Part shown: positions 19,007-59,038 of the stretch, in pieces
How positions within the stretch are numbered: the stretch's first letter is position 1
Layout of the letters: each line of letters opens with the position of its first letter
Source of the DNA: an uncultured Clostridia bacterium
GTDB lineage: Bacteria; Bacillota; Clostridia; TANB77; CAG-508
Assembly: GCA_947625645.1 (NCBI GenBank)
Contig: CANQPE010000002.1
Coordinates: 22,981-86,980 of the forward strand
DNA: 64,000 bases
Reading direction: 5' to 3'
The notes under the pieces: model-generated
Database searches by the model: none
Seen by the model: the letters and a program-made list of their open reading frames with translations, nothing else
What the model was told of the DNA's origin: nothing
Position numbers and translations under genes: made by a program

Positions 19007-19071
19007 GGGACAATTAGGGACGTATCTTTTTTGTCCTTCAAGGACAAAAAAGATACGTCCCTAATTGTCCC
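19007..19071. repeat. Palindromic repeat element copy 1, short form
   Basis: gggacaattagggacgtatcttttttgtcc / ttca / ggacaaaaaagatacgtccctaattgtccc; perfect 30-bp arms; between convergent vanZ and engB, overlapping the engB stop. Confidence 0.9.
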
Positions 19072-21038: not shown

Positions 21039-21102
21039 GGAACAATTAGGGACGTATCTTTTTTGTCCCTGAGGGACAAAAAAGATACGTCCCTAATTGT
21101 CC
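21039..21102. repeat. Palindromic repeat element copy 2, short form
   Basis: Same arms, loop tgag; lies between the DUF1653 gene and the serS RBS. Confidence 0.9.
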
Positions 21103-21109
21103 TTTGGGT

Positions 21110-27140: not shown

Positions 27141-27205
27141 GGAACAAATAGGGACGTATCTTTTTTGTCCGTTAGGGACAAAAAAGATACGTCCCTATTT
27201 GTTCC
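27141..27205. repeat. Palindromic repeat element copy 3, short form with CAAATAGG variant arms, inside the spoVA operon
   Basis: ggaacaaatagggacgtatcttttttgtcc / gtta / gggacaaaaaagatacgtccctatttgttcc; lies between the spoVAC stop and spoVAD start. Confidence 0.9.
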
Positions 27206-27221
27206 ATATGTGGTCAAAATT

Positions 27222-27704
27222 TTATACTAAAGTTATACTTTGCGTGTTAAAGATTAAATATACGAGACCGACTAAAATGGAGGCTGAAATGCCAAACACT
27301 AAAACTGGTCCGGCAACGGTGAACATTTTTCCTCCCACACCCATAACATAACCTTCTGATTTGTATTCCATGGCAGGTGAAACAATTGAGTTTGCAAAAC
27401 CTGTGATAGGAATTAAAGAGCCTGCCCCTGCAAACTTACCAATTTTATTAAAGATATTTAATCCAGTTAAAAATGCAGAAATTCCAATTAAAATAATGGA
27501 AACAATTGTCCCGGAAGTGGTAGTGTCTAGACCACGTTGTTTGCAGATATTAGCAATAATTTGACCAATGGTACAGATAAGACCTCCAACCCAAAAAGCA
27601 TTGAAGCAATTTTTTAAAATAGGAGAATTGGGAGATTTTTTATCAACATACTCTTGGTATTTTTGCTTACTTTCAATGGGACTTGAAGAATTTGAATTCA
27701 TCAA
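27222..27704 (-). CDS. spoVAC: Stage V sporulation protein AC
   Basis: SpoVAC/SpoVAEB family membrane protein, ~160 aa. Confidence 0.8.
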   Translation of the reverse strand: MMNSNSSSPIESKQKYQEYVDKKSPNSPILKNCFNAFWVGGLICTIGQIIANICKQRGLDTTTSGTIVSIILIGISAFLTGLNIFNKIGKFAGAGSLIPITGFANSIVSPAMEYKSEGYVMGVGGKMFTVAGPVLVFGISASILVGLVYLIFNTQSITLV

Positions 27705-27922
27705 TTTTCCCCCTTTCGGTTTAAATCTAGAACAAAACTTAAGTCTAAATCGACATAATATTCTGCGATTTTATTACCATCAATTTTTGCATATTGATTT
27801 AAAATTTTAACACTTGATAAATAATCAATTGTTTTGGAAGCTTCTGAAACTGCCTTTACAATAGCATCTTTCCACGAAATGTTTGAGTTCCCAGTAACAT
27901 TTAAGTGTTTTTCTATTTCCAT
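27701..27922 (-). CDS. Dodecin-like small protein, first gene of the spoVA operon (stop overlaps the spoVAC start)
   Basis: HLNVTGNSNISWKDAIVKAVSEASKTIDYLSSVKILN...YYVDLDLSF resembles the dodecin fold. Confidence 0.45.
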   Translation of the reverse strand: MEIEKHLNVTGNSNISWKDAIVKAVSEASKTIDYLSSVKILNQYAKIDGNKIAEYYVDLDLSFVLDLNRKGEN

Positions 27923-28036
27923 AACTTATATCCATCCTTTCTAAGGCAAAAGTGTTTACCTTTACAAAATTTTCTGATAATATTTTTTACCGATTTTTGA
28001 AAAATTATACAAAATTGAATAACAAAATCATTTTTT

Positions 28037-28116
28037 GGACAATTAGGGACGGGACAATTAGGGACGTATCTTTTTTGTCCATCAGGGACAAAAAAGATAC
28101 GTCCCTAATTGTCCCC
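28037..28116. repeat. Palindromic repeat element copy 4, short form with a 14-bp partial left-arm duplication
   Basis: ggacaattagggac + gggacaattagggacgtatcttttttgtcc / atca / gggacaaaaaagatacgtccctaattgtcccc. Confidence 0.9.
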
Positions 28117-28120
28117 AAAA

Positions 28121-28248
28121 AAAAAATAAAAATTTGCACGAAAAAGAAGATTTGAATCGTTTTATCAATGAAAGAGGAAAAAAGACAGCTAAAAGGGGAG
28201 GCATAGAAGAGAAAGTGGAAAACAAAAAAATAAAGGGAGGGATTTTTC
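28121..28248 (+). pseudogene. Remnant of the ECF sigma-factor 5' region (promoter/UTR and first 7 codons), fused to the paralog-1 start
   Basis: About 90% identical to 30494..30612, including a GTGGAAAACAAAAAAATAAAG start remnant that runs into a stop. Confidence 0.6.
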
Positions 28249-30348
28249 ATGAAAATTAGAAGAAAAATTATTGCGATTGCATCCACACTAGCCATTTTAT
28301 TAGGAACAGGAACAGTATATGCAGCACTGGGAGGAACGATTAATGGAGTGCCAGTGCTAGAATGGATGGGAATCAAAGTTTCAAACCAAGAGGTGGAATA
28401 CATACAACCAGTTCAAAATAAAGTTGTAGAAAATGACATAGCAAGAGTGGCATTAGAATCAGCAGTATGTGACGATGGGTATACCATATTGCAATTTAGA
28501 GTAAACTTAAAAGATAAAATTATGCAACAATATCGAGAAGAGACGGAAGAAGGAACGAATGTACCATTTATCAATTTATTATTCAACGATTCCGCCAAAG
28601 ACTTGGTGGAAAAGGGGGAGTATAGTCTAAGCAATTACCATCTTATTGTTAACCAAGATGGTGTAAATATTAGAAATGGAGCAACCGATCAAACCCTTAA
28701 AAGAATATCTGAAAGTGAATATTTAGTAGATCAAGTATGGTTTTTAGATGACACCATTTTAGGAGACCAAGAAACATTTGAAATTACATTAAGAGACATT
28801 GCTATTAGAATGGAAAATGAAGGTTTTATGATAGATGGAAGCATTCAAACTACATTATCTAAAACAGAGGCAATGGAACAGTCAACAGTTATTATACCTG
28901 AAGAAGAAATGACGCTGACACGAGGAAAAATGAAGCATACCCTTGAAAAAGTAACAATAACACCATTACAGAACATTATAGAATTTCAAACGGTATACGA
29001 AGATGTCAATAGAGACGACTTTCAAAATACAATCCATCCATTAAAATATGAGGCATATGACGAAAATGGGGAATACCTATCAACAATGGATATCATTACA
29101 AAAGCAAACATTACTTACGAAGACGGTTCAGAAGAGGAATATGAATTGCAAGACGATTTTTCAGATGATACGTTTGCTAAAGAAACATTTGAACATGCAA
29201 AGTATGAAATTACTAGAAAAATTGCAATTGACCAAACCAATAAAAATGAAACAATCATATTAAAAGCATTCGAAACGATGTTAGAAGAGGGAAGAGAAAA
29301 AAGAGAAGGCATACAACAATATGAAGTGAATTTTGCGAAACAAACCATAAAAAGTCAAGATGAAGTAGAAGAAAATGAGCAAACAGAAAGTGATGTAACA
29401 AAAACAGAAGAGCCAATAGAAAGTGGTGTAGCGACAATAGAAGAGCAAATAAAAACAGAAAAAACGGGAAACATATTGAAAGCAGAAGTAACCCAAATGA
29501 CAATAGGAATAGAAGGTAAAGGCGTAATAGACGTCAAAGACAAAGAAATAATAGAGCAACTTGTAACAACAGTGAATGAAAAAACGCAAGAGTTCAAAAA
29601 TTTTACTGAAATATTTGGAGAAGACGATGGCGGGGCGGCACCTGCATGTCTACAAATTCATTTAGCTAATGGAAAATTTTATTTTATCGGAGTTTGTGAC
29701 AAGTATGTAAAAGATGCTACAGGCCAATATTATAATGTTATGTTCGTTAGTGAATATAATGAAGCAAACCATGAAAATATCATTAGTGATAAAATCTATA
29801 TTGTAGAAACAGAGTTACAAAAACAATTAGACGAATTATATGAACAAGAACGCCAAGCAAGTCAAACCCAGGCACCACAAGTAGAAGAATCTTATGAAGA
29901 GAAACCTAACCTAGAAGAAGCAAGTACAGAGAAAACAGAAATACTTAGCAATGTGGATTACATAAAAGTTAGTATCTTTGAACTAGAAGAAGAAATGGTT
30001 AAAGAAAAGGCTGTTACAATAAGAGACGCAAAAGAAATCAAGCAATTGGTGCAAACCATTAATGAACATGCAAGCCAATATGAAACATTTTTAGAAGACA
30101 TGGGAGCAGGAGACTATTTTGAAGGAACTCCAGCCATAACAGCATATTTAAAGAATGGAAATGAGGTTACTATCATGGCAAAGGATGACTTTGATAAAGA
30201 TAAAAATGGAAAATTTTACAATGTGTTTGCTTATTATGAATATGAAATGGGGGAGGAAATCCGCGCCGTAAAGGATGCATACTATAAGATAGATGTAGAT
30301 TTGCAACATCAAATAGAAGCATTATATCAAAAATATGAGAGAAAATAA
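28249..30348 (+). CDS. Membrane-anchored large extracytoplasmic protein, paralog 1 of the anti-sigma-like protein, lacking the cytoplasmic N-terminal segment
   Basis: Signal-anchor MKIRRKIIAIASTLAILLGTGTVYA; ~90% nucleotide identity to 31190.. over the first several hundred bp; C-terminal tandem ~125-aa domain pair. Confidence 0.7.
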   Translation: MKIRRKIIAIASTLAILLGTGTVYAALGGTINGVPVLEWMGIKVSNQEVEYIQPVQNKVVENDIARVALESAVCDDGYTILQFRVNLKDKIMQQYREETEEGTNVPFINLLFNDSAKDLVEKGEYSLSNYHLIVNQDGVNIRNGATDQTLKRISESEYLVDQVWFLDDTILGDQETFEITLRDIAIRMENEGFMIDGSIQTTLSKTEAMEQSTVIIPEEEMTLTRGKMKHTLEKVTITPLQNIIEFQTVYEDVNRDDFQNTIHPLKYEAYDENGEYLSTMDIITKANITYEDGSEEEYELQDDFSDDTFAKETFEHAKYEITRKIAIDQTNKNETIILKAFETMLEEGREKREGIQQYEVNFAKQTIKSQDEVEENEQTESDVTKTEEPIESGVATIEEQIKTEKTGNILKAEVTQMTIGIEGKGVIDVKDKEIIEQLVTTVNEKTQEFKNFTEIFGEDDGGAAPACLQIHLANGKFYFIGVCDKYVKDATGQYYNVMFVSEYNEANHENIISDKIYIVETELQKQLDELYEQERQASQTQAPQVEESYEEKPNLEEASTEKTEILSNVDYIKVSIFELEEEMVKEKAVTIRDAKEIKQLVQTINEHASQYETFLEDMGAGDYFEGTPAITAYLKNGNEVTIMAKDDFDKDKNGKFYNVFAYYEYEMGEEIRAVKDAYYKIDVDLQHQIEALYQKYERK

Positions 30349-30360
30349 AAAAGTTCTCTC

Positions 30361-30425
30361 GGGACAGTTAGGGACGTATCTTTTTTGTCCATTAGGGACA
30401 AAAAAGATACGTCCCTAATTGTCCC
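30361..30425. repeat. Palindromic repeat element copy 5, short form
   Basis: gggacaGttaggg left arm pairs with a T on the right arm (G·U in RNA); otherwise perfect. Confidence 0.9.
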
Positions 30426-30590
30426 AAACAGACACTAATTTGTTCGAGAGTTCTTGTAAAAAATGTTTACAAAAAAATGCGGAAATGATAAAATAAAAAA
30501 AATAAAAATTTGCACGAAACAGAAAGTTTGAATCGTTTTATAAATGAAAGAGGAAAAAAGGCAATTAAAAGGGGAGGAATAGAAAGGAAA

Positions 30591-31076
30591 ATGGAAAACC
30601 AAAAAATAAAAGAATTAGTAGAAACATATTCAGATATGATTATGAAAATTGCCTATCAAAACAGCTTTAATAAATCAGATAGTGAAGACATTGTTCAAGA
30701 AGTTTTTTTGAAGTTGATGAAAAACATAAACAAATTAGGAGAGGACAACAATTATATAAAGGCATGGCTAATTAGAGTGACAATAAATTTAAGCAAAGAC
30801 TATAACAAAAGCGCTTGGTATAAAAAGGTAAGAGCTATTGAAGAAGATAATCAAGAATATGAGTTTAACTCAGAAGAACAAGATGTTTTAAAGGAACTGG
30901 CAAAATTAAAACCAGTGTACCGAAATACCATTTATTTATACTATTATGAAGGGTACAGGATACATGAAATTGCCAAAATCTTAAATCAAAATGAAAATAC
31001 AGTAAGTTCCAACTTGACAAGAGCAAGAAAACAATTAAAAGGCATCTTAGAAGAAGGAGGTGAGCTGTATGCCTAA
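30591..31076 (+). CDS. ECF-type sigma-70 family RNA polymerase sigma factor
   Basis: Region 2 (DIVQEVFLKL...AWL) and region 4 HTH (IHEIAKILNQNENTVSSNLTRARKQL); stop overlaps the downstream start (ATGCCTAA). Confidence 0.8.
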   Translation: MENQKIKELVETYSDMIMKIAYQNSFNKSDSEDIVQEVFLKLMKNINKLGEDNNYIKAWLIRVTINLSKDYNKSAWYKKVRAIEEDNQEYEFNSEEQDVLKELAKLKPVYRNTIYLYYYEGYRIHEIAKILNQNENTVSSNLTRARKQLKGILEEGGELYA

Positions 31077-33249
31077 CCAATATCATAATGTCATATCAAA
31101 GATAAATTTAGATGAAAGTACCAAAGAAAACCTTATATTGCAGTTAGAACAAAATAAAACCAAAAAAGTGAAGGGAGTACTTTTCATGAAAATTAAAAGA
31201 GCAATGATTGCGATTGTATCAACACTCACCATTTTATTAGGAACAGGAACAGCATATGCAGCACTAGGAGGAACGATTAATGGAGTGCCAATGCTAGAAT
31301 GGATAGGAATCAAATTTTCAAATCAAGAGGGGGAATACATTCAACCAATTCAAAATCAGGTTGTAGAAAATGACGTAGCAAAAGTAGCATTAGAATCAGC
31401 AGTATGTGACGATGGGTTCACCATATTGCAATTTAGAGTAAACTTAAAAGATAAAATCGTGCAACAATATGAAGACGAAATAAACGAAGGCATATATAGC
31501 CCAGCTATCAGTTTATTTTATAATGAATCAGCTAAAATAGCAGGGGAGGGACAATCATTACCATTGGGTACTGATGGAAATCCTATTATTGGAAATCCTA
31601 TTATTGATGGAAATAGTGTAGATATCAGAAATGAAGCAACCGAACAAACCCTCAAAAGAATATCAATAAGTGAATATTTAGTATATCAAGTATGGTTTTT
31701 AGATGAGACTATTTTAGGAGACGAAGAAACATTTGAAATTGAATTAAGAGATATTGCTATCAAGGTGTTAGGAAGAGACGGTTTTAAGATAGATGGAAGT
31801 ATTCAAACTACATTATCTAAAACAGAGGCAATGGAACATTCAAAAGTGATTACACCAAAAGAAGAAATGACAGTGACACGAGGAAAAATGAAGCATACAC
31901 TTGAGAAAGTAACAGTAACACCATTACAAAATATTGTAGAAATCAAAACAGTGTACGAAGATGTCAATAGAGACGATTTTAAAAATACAATTCGTGCATT
32001 GGTATATGAGGCATATTACGATGATATATACAGTTTATCTACAAAGGATATTGTTACAGAATCACGTATTACTTACGAAGACGGCTCAACAGAAGAACAT
32101 GAAGTGCCAGATGTTTTTTTTGAGAATGATATATTTGATAAAGAAACATTTGAACATGCAAAGTATGAAATTACTAGAAAAATTGCAATTGACCAAAGTG
32201 ACAAAAATGAAGCATTCACATTAAAAGTATATGAATATGACTTTAGGGGAGAAGATGAAAGGAAAGAGATAAACGGCATACAACAATATGATATTAATTT
32301 GGTCGAACAAACCATAAAAAGTCAAGATGAAGTGGAAGAAAATGAGCAAATAGAAAATGATGCAACGAAAGTAAAAGAGAAAATAAAAACAGAAAAAACG
32401 GGAAATATATTAGAAGCAGATGTAACCCAAATGATAGTAGGAGTAGAAGGTAAAGGAGAAATAGAAATCAAGAACAAAGAAGTGATAGAGCAACTTGTAA
32501 CAACAGTGAATAAAAACACGCAAGAGTTCAAAAATTATGCTGAAATATTTGGAGAAGATGATGGTGGCGCGTCACCTACATGGATACAGATTCATTTAGC
32601 TGATGGAAAATTTTATTTTATTGCAGCTTGTGATGATTATGTAAAAGATACTGCAGGTAAATATTGGAATCTTATATTTGTTGTTGACGTCAAAGAGCCA
32701 AAAGAAAAATCCATGCAGAAAGTTTATATCATAGAAACAGATTTAGAAAAAACGTTAGACGAATTATATGAACAAGAACGCCAAACAGCAAGTCAAACCC
32801 AAACGCCACAAGTAGAAGAGCCTTCAGAAGATGAGACAGAAATACTTAGCGATGTAGATTACATAGAAATTAGTATCCCCGAACCAGGAGCAGAAAGCTA
32901 TGTACCAAAAACAGCTACGATAAGAGATGAAAAAGAAATCAAGCAATTGGTGCAAACCATTAATGAACATGCAAAACGATATGAGACATTTCTAGAAGAC
33001 GTGGGAGCGGGAGACTATTTTGAAGGGGGAGCAACCGTCATGGCATATTTGAAGAATGGAAATCAGGTTAGTATTACAGCACTTGATCATTTTGATCAAG
33101 ATAAAAATGGAGAATATTACAATGTGTTTAATTATTGTAATTATGAATGGTATGGAAAAATCCTTATCGACAGAAATGCATATTATAAGATAGATGTAGA
33201 TTTGCAACAGCAGATAAAGGAATTATATCAAAGATATGAGGGAGAATAA
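31069..33249 (+). CDS. Putative anti-sigma factor: short cytoplasmic N-terminus, one TM, DUF4179-like proximal ectodomain and a large ectodomain ending in two tandem ~125-aa domains
   Basis: Translationally coupled to the sigma gene; TM MIAIVSTLTILLGTGTAYA; internal repeat EVIEQLVTTVN... / KEIKQLVQTIN... Confidence 0.65.
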   Translation: MPNQYHNVISKINLDESTKENLILQLEQNKTKKVKGVLFMKIKRAMIAIVSTLTILLGTGTAYAALGGTINGVPMLEWIGIKFSNQEGEYIQPIQNQVVENDVAKVALESAVCDDGFTILQFRVNLKDKIVQQYEDEINEGIYSPAISLFYNESAKIAGEGQSLPLGTDGNPIIGNPIIDGNSVDIRNEATEQTLKRISISEYLVYQVWFLDETILGDEETFEIELRDIAIKVLGRDGFKIDGSIQTTLSKTEAMEHSKVITPKEEMTVTRGKMKHTLEKVTVTPLQNIVEIKTVYEDVNRDDFKNTIRALVYEAYYDDIYSLSTKDIVTESRITYEDGSTEEHEVPDVFFENDIFDKETFEHAKYEITRKIAIDQSDKNEAFTLKVYEYDFRGEDERKEINGIQQYDINLVEQTIKSQDEVEENEQIENDATKVKEKIKTEKTGNILEADVTQMIVGVEGKGEIEIKNKEVIEQLVTTVNKNTQEFKNYAEIFGEDDGGASPTWIQIHLADGKFYFIAACDDYVKDTAGKYWNLIFVVDVKEPKEKSMQKVYIIETDLEKTLDELYEQERQTASQTQTPQVEEPSEDETEILSDVDYIEISIPEPGAESYVPKTATIRDEKEIKQLVQTINEHAKRYETFLEDVGAGDYFEGGATVMAYLKNGNQVSITALDHFDQDKNGEYYNVFNYCNYEWYGKILIDRNAYYKIDVDLQQQIKELYQRYEGE

Positions 33250-33260
33250 AAAATTCTCTC

Positions 33261-33325
33261 GGGACAATTAGGGACGTATCTTTTTTGTCCGTTAGGGACA
33301 AAAAAGATACGTCCCTAATTGTCCC
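33261..33325. repeat. Palindromic repeat element copy 6, short form
   Basis: Perfect arms, loop gtta; lies between the paralog-2 stop and rsmB start. Confidence 0.9.
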
Positions 33326-33353
33326 TCGGCCAGAAAAAAAGGAGGAAGAAAAA

Positions 33354-34676
33354 GTGATTGATAAAGTCAGAGAAGTAGCACTGAAGGTGCTGTATAAAGT
33401 TGATAAGGAGAAAGCATTTTCTAATCTTGTGCTAAATCAGGAGATAAAAGATACGAAAAAAAATGGAGTGCAACTTACACCACGTGATGTGGGTCTCATT
33501 TCAGAGATTGTGTATGGCGTAACCAATTGGAGACTGACCATTGATCATATCATTGAAACATATGCAACAATCAAATTGAAAAAAATTTCGCCTTGGATTA
33601 TGAATATTTTAAGAATGGGAATTTATCAAATTGTATGGTTAGATAAAATTCCAAAATCTGCCGCAGTGAATGAAAGCGTTAATTTGGCAAAACGTTATGG
33701 TCATAGTGGCAGTGCTAGATTTGTCAATGCAATTTTACACAAAATAACAAAAGAGGATTATCATAAAATGACACAAATTGCAGATAATAAACAAAGAATT
33801 TCACTTATGTATGCAATGCCAATGTGGATAGTAGAACAATTACTAAAAGAAAGAAAAACAATAAAAGAAGTAGAAACCATTTGCCAAGAACTAACACAAA
33901 GACCAACGCTTACAATTAGAAGAAATCAATTAAAAATTCAAAAAAAGGAATTTGAAGAACAACTCACCAAGGCACAAATCATATTTGAAAATAGTACGAT
34001 TAATCCAGATTTTTATTACATAAAAAATATGAAACAAATAGAAGAATTGGAGTTATTCCAAAAAGGGTACATGACAGTGCAAGATGTATCTGCTGGACTA
34101 GCAGCATGGTATTTGGAACCAAAACCTGGGGAGACTATTTTAGATGCATGTAGTGCACCAGGCGGGAAAACAACCTATTTAGCAGAAATAATGGGAAACC
34201 AAGGAAAGATAGAAGCATGGGATATATACCCACACAGAACAAAATTAATTCAAGAAAATGCCAAAAGATTAGGAATTACAATCATACACACAAAAGAGCA
34301 AGATGCAAGCATATACCATCCAGAATATAACGAAGCATTTGATAAAATTTTATTAGATGTCCCTTGCATGGGAATTGGTGTTATCAAACGAAAACCAGAT
34401 ATTAAATGGCAAAAAAGACCAGAAGATATACCAGAAGTGACGAAACTACAAGAACAAATCATAACGGCATGTGCCAACTATCTAAAAAAGGGAGGGCAAT
34501 TGATTTATTCTACATGTAGCATATTGGAAGAAGAAAATCAAAAAGTAGTACAGAAATTTCTAAAAAAACACACAGAATTTTTTGCAGAAGAACTTGTTTC
34601 AGAACAAAAAATGTTACAAATTCTCCCAAAAAATGAACAAGATGGATTTTTTATAGCAAAATTGGTAAAAAAATAA
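33354..34676 (+). CDS. rsmB: 16S rRNA (cytosine-C5) methyltransferase RsmB/Sun with N-terminal NusB-like domain
   Basis: NusB-like N-terminus, SAM-binding DxCSAPGGKT, PCMG and TCS catalytic Cys motifs; GTG start after AGGAGG; the ORF-track start at 33285 runs through the repeat. Confidence 0.85.
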   Translation: MIDKVREVALKVLYKVDKEKAFSNLVLNQEIKDTKKNGVQLTPRDVGLISEIVYGVTNWRLTIDHIIETYATIKLKKISPWIMNILRMGIYQIVWLDKIPKSAAVNESVNLAKRYGHSGSARFVNAILHKITKEDYHKMTQIADNKQRISLMYAMPMWIVEQLLKERKTIKEVETICQELTQRPTLTIRRNQLKIQKKEFEEQLTKAQIIFENSTINPDFYYIKNMKQIEELELFQKGYMTVQDVSAGLAAWYLEPKPGETILDACSAPGGKTTYLAEIMGNQGKIEAWDIYPHRTKLIQENAKRLGITIIHTKEQDASIYHPEYNEAFDKILLDVPCMGIGVIKRKPDIKWQKRPEDIPEVTKLQEQIITACANYLKKGGQLIYSTCSILEEENQKVVQKFLKKHTEFFAEELVSEQKMLQILPKNEQDGFFIAKLVKK

Positions 34677-45359: not shown

Positions 45360-45457
45360 GGGACAATTAGGGACGTTTCTTTTTTGTCCCTCAGGAACAA
45401 TTGGGGACAGACCTTTGGAGCATGGGGGACAAAAAAGAAACGTCCCTAATTGTCCCC
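45360..45457. repeat. Palindromic repeat element copy 7, long form (cgtttc arm variant, 35-nt internal insert)
   Basis: gggacaattagggacgtttcttttttgtccc ... gggacaaaaaagaaacgtccctaattgtccc; the insert contains a half-site-like ggaacaattgggga. Confidence 0.85.
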
Positions 45458-45475: not shown

Positions 45476-46399
45476 ATGAAGGAAGAGAAAAAGGCTACGC
45501 GCCAAAGCTATGGAGAGGCGTTAGTAGATTTGGGAAAACAAAATCCGAATATTGTTGTATTAGATGCAGATTTAGCAAGTGCCACAAAAACAGAATTGTT
45601 TGCCAAGGCATATCCTGACCGTTTTTTTGATATGGGAATTGCGGAAGCAGATATGATGTCAACCGCTGCAGGAATGGCCACTTGTGGCAAAATTCCATAT
45701 GCAAGTACATTTGCTATGTTTGCCGCAGGAAGGGCATATGACCAAATACGAAATAGTATTTGTTACCCAGAATTACCAGTTAAAATTTGTGCAACCCATG
45801 CAGGAATTACCGTAGGGGAAGATGGAGCAACCCATCAAATGATAGAAGACCTATCTTTAATGCGTACATTACCCAATATGACAGTTTTGTCAGTAAGTGA
45901 TGATGTACAAACAAAGTGGGCTGTAAAGGAAATAGCAAATTTACAAGGTCCAGTATATTTACGTTTATCTCGATTAGCAACCAATGTGCTATATGAAGAA
46001 AATCAAGTATTTGAAATTGGAAAAGCTGTGCAATGGGGCAATGGAACAGACGGTACCATTTTTAGTACAGGTGTGACAGTGGCCGAAAGTCTAAAGGCAC
46101 AAGAGCAGTTAGAACAAAAAGGAATCCATGTCAGAGTGGTAGATATGCATACCATAAAGCCAATTGATAAAGATATGATTATTAAGGCGGCAAAAGAAAC
46201 AAAACGCCTTGTTTCTGTAGAAGACCATAATGTGATAGGAGGTTTAGGTAGTGCAATAGCAGAAGTTTTAACAGAATATGAACCCAAACATTTTATTCGA
46301 TTGGGTATTCCAGATACCTTTGGAAAATCTGGAAAAGCAGTGGAATTGATGAAATTTTTTGGCATCACAGCAGATAATATTATGAAGCAGTGGAGCTAG
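45476..46399 (+). CDS. Transketolase C-terminal subunit (pyrimidine-binding and C-terminal domains), orphan
   Basis: IAEADMMSTAAGMATCGKIPYASTFAMFAAGRAYDQIRNSI; no N-terminal TPP-binding subunit gene adjacent; the ORF-track start at 45401 runs through the repeat. Confidence 0.8.
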   Translation: MKEEKKATRQSYGEALVDLGKQNPNIVVLDADLASATKTELFAKAYPDRFFDMGIAEADMMSTAAGMATCGKIPYASTFAMFAAGRAYDQIRNSICYPELPVKICATHAGITVGEDGATHQMIEDLSLMRTLPNMTVLSVSDDVQTKWAVKEIANLQGPVYLRLSRLATNVLYEENQVFEIGKAVQWGNGTDGTIFSTGVTVAESLKAQEQLEQKGIHVRVVDMHTIKPIDKDMIIKAAKETKRLVSVEDHNVIGGLGSAIAEVLTEYEPKHFIRLGIPDTFGKSGKAVELMKFFGITADNIMKQWS

Positions 46400-46462
46400 G
46401 GACAATTAGGGACGTATCTTTTTTGTCCCAATTGGACAAAAAAGATACGTCCCTAATTGTTC
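46399..46462. repeat. Palindromic repeat element copy 8, short form
   Basis: Arms as in the family, loop aatt; starts at the last base of the tkt stop codon. Confidence 0.9.
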
Positions 46463-46488
46463 CAAAATAGAAAGGATGGGAATGAAAA

Positions 46489-53581: not shown

Positions 53582-53678
53582 GGGACAATCAGGGACGGTT
53601 CTTTTTTGTCCCTCAAGAGCAATTGGAGCTAGACCTTTGAGGCTTGAGGGACAAAAAAGAACCGTCCCTGATTGTCCC
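53582..53678. repeat. Palindromic repeat element copy 9, long form (caatcaggg/cggttc variant with compensated arms)
   Basis: 36-bp perfect arms gggacaatcagggacggttcttttttgtccctcaag / cttgagggacaaaaaagaaccgtccctgattgtccc; between convergent greA and deoD. Confidence 0.85.
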
Positions 53679-58940: not shown

Positions 58941-59038
58941 GGGACAATTAGGGACGGTTCTTTTTTGTCCCTCAGGAGCAATAGGGGTCAGATCTATGTA
59001 ATATTGAGGGACAAAAAAGAACCGTCCCTAATTGTCCC
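58941..59038. repeat. Palindromic repeat element copy 10, long form; it supplies the last ~14 codons and the stop of the tsaC-like gene
   Basis: gggacaattagggacggttcttttttgtccctca ... tgagggacaaaaaagaaccgtccctaattgtccc; the minus-strand reading GTIRDGSFLSLNIT* is the tsaC C-terminus. Confidence 0.85.

Follow-up and report, generated by a model that had tools for sequence, protein, structure and literature searches.

A repeat-mediated deletion as the probable origin of an orphan DUF4179-type sensor gene behind an ECF sigma-type promoter in an uncultured gut Clostridia bacterium

How does a gene of an anti-sigma family come to stand behind a sigma-type promoter with no sigma gene at its side? 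This question is raised by two tandem units that we found in the 64-kb stretch of DNA analysed here, called the window. They are flanked by a dodecin-like gene on the minus strand (27701-27922) and by rsmB, which probably starts at 33354. Three perfect palindromes of 65 nt mark the locus, and each unit ends in one of them (Table 1). In unit 2, an ECF sigma factor gene overlaps the gene of a full-length anti-sigma factor (paralog 2), which is composed of a 39-aa cytoplasmic N-terminus, a single transmembrane (TM) helix, a sub-threshold DUF4179 domain and an ectodomain. In unit 1, the related protein (paralog 1) starts at the Met directly before the TM helix. Its gene adjoins no sigma gene and has 6-7 sigma codons left upstream, whereas paralog 2 overlaps an intact one. 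The sigma gene of unit 2 is the only member of its family in the window; no second one was found.

Table 1. Positions of the features of the two tandem units in the window.
Feature	Position	Strand	Description
Palindrome IR1	28051-28115	none	30-nt arms, 5-nt loop; left border of unit 1
Sigma promoter and leader, copy 1	28119-28214	+	homologous to 30495-30590, 86/96 identical
ECF-type promoter motif, copy 1	28135-28160	+	TGCACGAAA-N11-AATCGT; both boxes the same as in copy 2 and at orthologous loci
Sigma-start remnant	28215-28259	+	ATG changed to GTG at 28215; opens a 14-codon out-of-frame ORF
Deletion junction (putative)	28219-28236	+	single kept copy of the 12-nt repeat and imperfect extension
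Shine-Dalgarno sequence AAAGGGAGGG	28232-28241	+	7 nt before ATG 28249; AAGGGAG core from anti-sigma codons
Paralog 1, DUF4179-type protein	28249-30348	+	699 aa; without cytoplasmic domain
Palindrome IR2	30361-30425	none	12 nt past the paralog-1 stop
Segment X	30426-30494	+	69 nt, in unit 2 only
ECF-type promoter motif, copy 2	30511-30536	+	boxes identical to copy 1
ECF sigma factor gene	30591-31076	+	161 aa; Sigma70_r2 and r4_2
Parental direct repeat AAAACCAAAAAA, left copy	30595-30606	+	sigma codons 2-6
Paralog 2, full-length anti-sigma factor	31069-33249	+	726 aa; start 31069 overlaps the sigma stop 31076
Parental direct repeat AAAACCAAAAAA, right copy	31156-31167	+	anti-sigma codons 30-33
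Palindrome IR3	33261-33325	none	12 nt past the paralog-2 stop; 28 nt before the likely rsmB start

In many of 74 related species (uncultured gut Clostridia MAGs with RsmB 37-69% identical), including the closest ones (L006-L008), rsmB is preceded by the dodecin gene at a distance of no more than a few hundred nucleotides. No homologs of the sigma factor or of the paralogs were found within 10 kb at the dodecin/rsmB loci of these 74 species, and the whole 5.3-kb block therefore appears to be a lineage-specific insertion. A module of an ECF sigma factor and a DUF4179-type single-pass anti-sigma factor would thus have been inserted between the two genes in this lineage, and would now be present as two tandem units with the 65-nt palindromes between them. 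The consensus terminator scan gave no terminators, and the palindromes carry no T-run. Across the whole window, no Rfam family reached its gathering score. The region's best match to a sigma-70-like promoter lies in segment X (TTTACA-17-TG-TAAAAT, 30466-30494; a consensus match only). Because segment X scored within the shuffle range against both the DNA preceding IR1 and the rsmB intergenic region of L006, we claim no homology for it.

The sigma factor matched Sigma70_r2 (47.5 bits), Sigma70_r4_2 (48.9 bits) and TIGR02937 (84.8 bits; cut-off 42.9). It has the ECF (group 4) layout, with regions 2 and 4 only and a length within about 160-200 aa. It reached no equivalog-level model, and the SigV equivalog scored 73.9 bits against a cut-off of 190. 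The Pfam family DUF4179 scored 26.3 bits for paralog 2 and 24.3 bits for paralog 1, both below the gathering score of 30.1, and was matched at E<=0.01 by 10 of the 12 family members. An AF2 model of paralog 1 was of medium quality (pLDDT 70.8; 80-90 over residues 50-370 and below 50 at the N-terminus), and its best match was PDB 3FBQ (Foldseek E 4.2e-11, probability 1.00, TM 0.56 on the target). In this model, the ectodomain fold is like that of a solved member of the DUF4179 family. A sequence-profile search of the PDB with the family alignment matched the ectodomain to no solved chain.

The start of unit 1 was then compared with unit 2. A sequence-only reading of this DNA had proposed that 28121-28237 resembles the sigma upstream region and first codons and then jumps to the stretch preceding the TM segment of paralog 2, and the alignment bears out both parts. 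Positions 28119-28234 align without gaps to 30495-30610 (104/116 identical, 90%; offset 2376), which covers the sigma promoter, the leader and the first codons. Positions 28219-28518 align without gaps to 31156-31455 (89%; offset 2937), from the end of the anti-sigma cytoplasmic domain onward. The two registers overlap at 28219-28230, AAAACAAAAAAA, with the consensus AAAAC(C/A)AAAAAA. The similarity thus includes the sigma 5' region, and the breakpoints coincide with the shared 12-nt microhomology. In unit 2, the 12-mer AAAACCAAAAAA is the longest direct repeat of the 835-nt parental interval (30426-31260), and its two copies run on into an imperfect extension (TAAAAG versus GTGAAG). The earlier reading had this extension wrong; the correct string is (t/g)(a/t)(a/g)aag.

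We enumerated 57,158 possible deletions, each with one end in the sigma leader or gene and the other shortly ahead of the TM-start ATG. Junction homology of at least 12 nt was found in 13 of them (0.02%; p about 2e-4 with random breakpoints), all 13 being one same event, and the median junction homology was 0-1 nt. The difference between the two offsets gives a loss of 561 nt, comprising sigma codons from about 6/8 to 161 and about the first 33 anti-sigma codons. The 14-codon stub ORF that remains of the sigma start overlaps the start of paralog 1. ATG 28249 is the sole possible start of paralog 1, since a TAA at 28231 interrupts its frame shortly before this codon.

Repeat geometry and offset difference agree with the earlier proposal that a deletion between direct repeats of about 12 bp took the sigma gene and the anti-sigma N-terminus, and we consider this interpretation well supported. 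Slippage in replication, or recombination between the two copies of AAAACCAAAAAA, would delete 561 nt in unit 1. It would take almost the entire sigma gene together with the ~33 N-terminal residues of the anti-sigma factor, which presumably make up its sigma-binding cytoplasmic domain. Unit 1 would keep the promoter and leader of the sigma gene, an out-of-frame stub of 14 codons, and an ORF from the Met just before the membrane helix. The undeleted parent of unit 1 is represented only by unit 2, a proxy that is 10-19% diverged, from which we infer the exact breakpoint (within 28219-28236) and the true parental repeat. A mis-join between near-repeats in a metagenome-derived contig could in principle create a false junction, since the locus appears to come from a single 141-kb NCBI contig with no second genome for comparison, and all the related genomes are MAGs of uncultured gut Clostridia. 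We regard such an artefact as very improbable: the units are only 81-90% identical and too diverged to collapse, the junction joins two non-homologous unit positions and has substitutions of its own (ATG to GTG, C to A), and the downstream frame is intact.

Related loci indicate the direction of the change. A complete sigma gene overlaps a full-length anti-sigma gene in L001-L004, L080/081, L082/083 and L084/085, and L005, where the contig ends inside the sigma gene, has the same overlap. Among the related loci, two that are degenerate or orphan depart from the layout of a sigma gene and a full-length DUF4179 anti-sigma gene. The N-terminal domain motif MxxKYxxxISKIxxxxxFKxKL is conserved in the full-length anti-sigma proteins. 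We searched 1.84 billion representative proteins exhaustively and obtained 109 representative homologs. Almost all of them share with paralog 2 an N-terminal extension of 38-54 aa that is absent from paralog 1; the first residue of paralog 1 falls at about residue 38-54 of the homologs, in all but a few matches starting at the query N-terminus. The complete sigma genes and full-length anti-sigma genes at related loci argue for loss and not gain, and by this comparison paralog 1 is the derived, deleted form.

We found no sister strain or undeleted allele in any collection searched. An exact look-up of paralog 1, the sigma factor and P0001 in the contig index returned no record, and a scan of genome contigs with paralog 2 returned no relative. 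In a 5.8-billion cluster search, both paralogs were singletons, with the next match at most 43% identical. Metagenome DNA was scanned twice, first for a leader pattern and then for a conserved coding pattern, with 0 matches each time. These searches bear on a one-step origin, in which the template would have switched at the 12-nt microhomology during the duplication itself and a two-sigma intermediate never existed. Such an event is expected to leave the same microhomology signature, no two-sigma relative was found in the collections searched, and unit 1 is without segment X, hence the units differ by more than one rearrangement. The sequence fits this scenario as well as a duplication followed by a deletion, but the single event is the more complex one, while tandem duplication and then deletion are two common steps, and we consider a one-step origin unlikely. 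Overall, it is probable that a module was inserted, that it came to form tandem units, and that a repeat-mediated deletion left an orphan sensor paralog behind the sigma promoter.

We next consider how a gene truncated in this manner would be translated. The sequence-only reading had noted a ribosome-binding site 8 nt upstream of the paralog-1 ATG and ascribed it to the junction. The sequence AAAGGGAGGG is present, at a spacing of 7 nt. Its origin lies elsewhere, as AAGGGAG followed 8 nt on by ATG already occurs inside the coding sequence of paralog 2 (31171-31188), where the site reads GAAGGGAG, 8 nt before the internal ATG at 31186. The orthologs L001, L080 and L082 have an SD-like AAGGGA or AAAGGAG before the TM segment, derived from conserved Lys-x-Gly codons, and it is followed by an ATG in L001 and L080. 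The predicted anti-SD pairing energies of paralog 1 (-12.4 kcal/mol) and of the internal paralog-2 site (-11.9 kcal/mol) both fall in the extreme tail of the coding-sequence background. The internal site and the near-equal pairing energies rule out that the junction made or clearly strengthened the ribosome-binding site. The deletion therefore exposed a latent start and did not build one. As this Met already had an SD-like sequence, provided by the Lys-x-Gly codons, the truncated gene would have been translatable at once.

The promoter left in front of paralog 1 resembles that of the sigma gene. The ECF-type motif occurs ahead of both units in a longer form, TTTGCACGAAA-N11-AATCGTTTTAT. Boxes and spacing are the same upstream of the sigma orthologs in L001, L080 and L082, loci whose proteins share only about 35-42% identity with the window proteins. 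The motif has two exact matches in 64 kb, with 0.1 matches expected at <=2 mismatches. Within the promoter region, unit 1 and unit 2 differ in the spacer and leader only, and unit 1 has an altered sigma SD and start codon. The 96 non-coding upstream bases are 90% identical between the units, compared with about 71% at synonymous sites (binomial 7e-6). dS between the paralogs is also low over the first 100 codons (0.18), and the low divergence of the promoter and of these codons could reflect gene conversion rather than constraint.

A motif conserved in four species fits autoregulation of the sigma factor at its own promoter. In Bacillus subtilis, the promoter PsigV depends on its own sigma factor, SigV (PMC6066255), and by this analogy we infer that the motif is an autoregulatory ECF promoter. 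The unit-2 sigma factor would then read the copy-1 promoter, making paralog 1 a member of that sigma's regulon. The earlier suggestion that paralog 1 is still expressed from the sigma promoter is plausible, since both promoter boxes are intact in copy 1 and the ORF bears signs of selection.

These signs come from the coding sequence. The paralog-1 ORF of 699 codons is unbroken in an AT-rich genome, and the two paralog ORFs are 81% identical in DNA. All eight indels between them (8/8) are multiples of 3. The dN/dS ratio of 0.51 (dS 0.37) indicates no more than moderate constraint. In Tajima relative-rate counts of the paralogs against four outgroups (34/34, 34/30, 33/32, 30/25), the amino-acid rates were equal. 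The open frame, the in-frame indels, dN/dS and the equal rates do not fit a decaying relic. Paralog 1 might still be an unexpressed or decaying pseudogene that owes its open frame and upstream similarity to recent origin or to gene conversion from unit 2. It has lost the sigma gene and the sigma-binding domain, its dN/dS is not that of a strongly constrained gene, and its 5' region is less diverged than the rest. We nevertheless consider a pseudogene quite improbable: a 2.1-kb frame is still open at about 19% DNA divergence with its indels in frame and a rate equal to that of paralog 2, and changes have hit the spacer, the sigma SD and the start codon but spared the promoter boxes.

Two homologs from other loci bear on the same point. 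Forms without the cytoplasmic domain are rare elsewhere. The orphan P0075 (L086) and the degenerate P0093 (L087) consist of TM helix, DUF4179-like domain and ectodomain, start at the Met before the TM helix and, like paralog 1, have no intact sigma gene upstream. P0075, an intact orphan that speaks against a pseudogene, lies behind an AI-2E transporter gene and has a different, sigma-70-like upstream sequence with no sigma remnant. L087 keeps the ECF-type promoter, with its sigma gene deleted internally, its N-terminal domain frameshifted and its ectodomain ORF truncated to 229 aa. The sigma deletion in L087 is independent and the locus is decaying, which shows that such loci can decay. For paralog 1, we retain the reading of a kept gene.

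What such a gene would produce is suggested by its N-terminus. The sequence MKIRRK / IIAIASTLAILLG / TGTVYA↓ALGG (the arrow marks the putative cleavage site) is laid out, by inspection, like a Sec signal peptide (n-h-c), with a positive n-region, a hydrophobic h-region and an AXA-type c-region within about 20-35 N-terminal residues. Also by inspection, VYA↓ALGG in paralog 1 and AYA↓ALGG in paralog 2 fit the -3/-1 rule, and the family shows almost no variation in the Y-A-A motif. The N-terminus of paralog 1 thus looks like a Sec signal peptide with a putative cleavage site at VYA↓A. Given this N-terminus and the missing cytoplasmic domain, the product would be an exported or membrane-tethered sensor ectodomain, unable to sequester the sigma factor. 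Its most likely role would be that of a ligand sink, a decoy or an effector. A more specific and rather doubtful idea is that the exported ectodomain, induced by the sigma factor, acts as a sink or decoy that feeds back on the unit-2 switch, and that the deletion fixed an internally initiated short isoform. Since a strong SD and an ATG lie inside the genes of paralog 2, L001 and L080, the full-length genes may make a short isoform by internal initiation.

Taken together, the locus offers a clean natural example of one small deletion turning a regulator into a likely regulon member. The sensor half appears to have been cut free of the sigma-binding half and left behind a sigma-type promoter, with a signal-peptide-like N-terminus and the use of a latent start. 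If the product is made and exported, the pair of units would provide a ready test of whether free RsiV-like ectodomains modulate signalling and of whether the ectodomain alone serves the cell. The host is an uncultured gut member of the Clostridia, and as a case of gene remodelling the locus is tidy but fairly ordinary. The type of deletion is well known; what came of it, an anti-sigma ectodomain kept as an orphan under a sigma-type promoter, makes a modestly interesting variant.

RecA-independent deletion between short direct repeats is known as slipped mispairing or illegitimate recombination. The lacI deletions described by Albertini et al. in 1982 are reportedly an example. The junction of unit 1 resembles such deletions in that one repeat copy stands at the junction, the sequence between the repeats is lost, and the longest available repeat was used. 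It differs from the classic cases in that the event is read from a diverged paralog and not from a pair of parent and mutant, and in that the product was kept as a gene and is not a null allele.

Among regulatory systems, unit 2 resembles the ECF30 system SigV-RsiV of Bacillus subtilis, where an ECF sigma gene is followed by the gene of RsiV, a single-pass anti-sigma factor with DUF4179. The DUF4179 domain of RsiV holds the TM segment, the site-1 cleavage site of signal peptidase and protective amphipathic helices (PMC6066255). Similarly, both paralogs of the window have A/V-Y-A↓A straight after the TM helix, and the window sigma gene has its own conserved ECF-like promoter. Unlike SigV, the window sigma factor scores far below the SigV equivalog cut-off. 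The closest structural likeness of the paralog-1 model, 3FBQ, is the ectodomain of BAS1627, a DUF4179-family anti-sigma factor of Bacillus anthracis (PMC6066255), yet the sequence identity is 11%. The window proteins differ from BAS1627 in that they continue at the C-terminus for about 300 aa more, a stretch that contains two internally repeated modules, and paralog 1 differs from RsiV in having neither a cytoplasmic domain nor a cognate sigma factor.

Compared with related Clostridia genomes, the block made up of palindrome IR1, paralog 1, IR2, the sigma gene, paralog 2 and IR3 is an insertion. In the closest relatives, the dodecin gene and rsmB are separated by ~165 nt (measured in locus L006). 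By alignment with L006, rsmB probably starts at a GTG codon only 28 nt beyond IR3; its mechanical ORF start falls within the palindrome itself. Since this gap is too small to hold an rsmB promoter, rsmB transcription may depend on read-through out of the inserted module.

The bordering palindrome is a near-perfect repeat of 65 nt with two 30-nt arms (GGGACAATTAGGGACGTATCTTTTTTGTCC / GGACAAAAAAGATACGTCCCTAATTGTCCC), and we found 10 copies in the 64-kb window. The majority of the copies are located no more than ~20 nt past stop codons or between convergent genes. Folded as RNA, it forms a hairpin of -55 kcal/mol (z = -12.9) that has no T-run. Rfam returned no match for the palindrome, and it was not found in the 79 loci searched, 74 of which came from related genomes. 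The palindrome appears to be a REP-like element specific to this lineage, and it may have mediated the tandem duplication.

Coordinates of features in the window and in two loci from other genomes
Feature	Coordinates	Remark
Palindrome copies	19007-19071, 21039-21103, 27141-27205, 28051-28115, 30361-30425, 33261-33325, 45360-45456, 46399-46463, 53582-53678, 58941-59038	fourth to sixth: IR1, IR2, IR3
Inserted block	28036-33325
C-terminal modules, paralog 1	29470-29860, 29930-30345	equivalent parts in paralog 2
Sigma-70-like match	30466-30494	TTTACA-17-TAAAAT with TG
ECF-type match, third	31973-31998	minus strand, within paralog 2
rsmB, mechanical ORF start	33285
IR3 to rsmB gap	33326-33353
rsmB, likely start	33354	GTG
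P0075	L086 1460-2955	474 aa
Degenerate locus	L087 330-760

The top sigma-70-like promoter match of the region sits in a 69-nt segment exclusive to unit 2 (the sigma gene and paralog 2). Its resemblance to the putative rsmB promoter of L006 was loose and not significant. A third match to the ECF-type motif (TGCACGAAT-N11-AATCGT), with one mismatch, lies antisense within paralog 2, and the homologous position of paralog 1 has no match to this motif. The antisense match could be a chance occurrence or an antisense promoter.

In both paralogs, the C-terminal ~300 aa consist of two internally repeated modules of ~125 aa each, which are 30% identical (E 1e-16); the alignment with protein P0003 spans one of them. 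Orthologs mostly lack these modules and carry other C-terminal domains, such as NADase_transloc or F5/8 type C.

An independent locus of another organism, L087, retains the ECF-type promoter. Within its sigma gene, an out-of-frame internal deletion fuses the N-terminal ~18 codons to the last ~10. A stop and a frameshift sever the anti-sigma N-terminal domain, and the ORF for the TM segment and ectodomain is cut short at 229 aa. In locus L086, the homolog P0075 is intact and begins at the TM helix (MKQKNIIIIAVVVLLILIIAGLAYA|S). No sigma gene lies upstream, where an AI-2E transporter gene ends 70 nt before it. P0075 belongs to the same family as the window paralogs and is an established orphan ectodomain protein.
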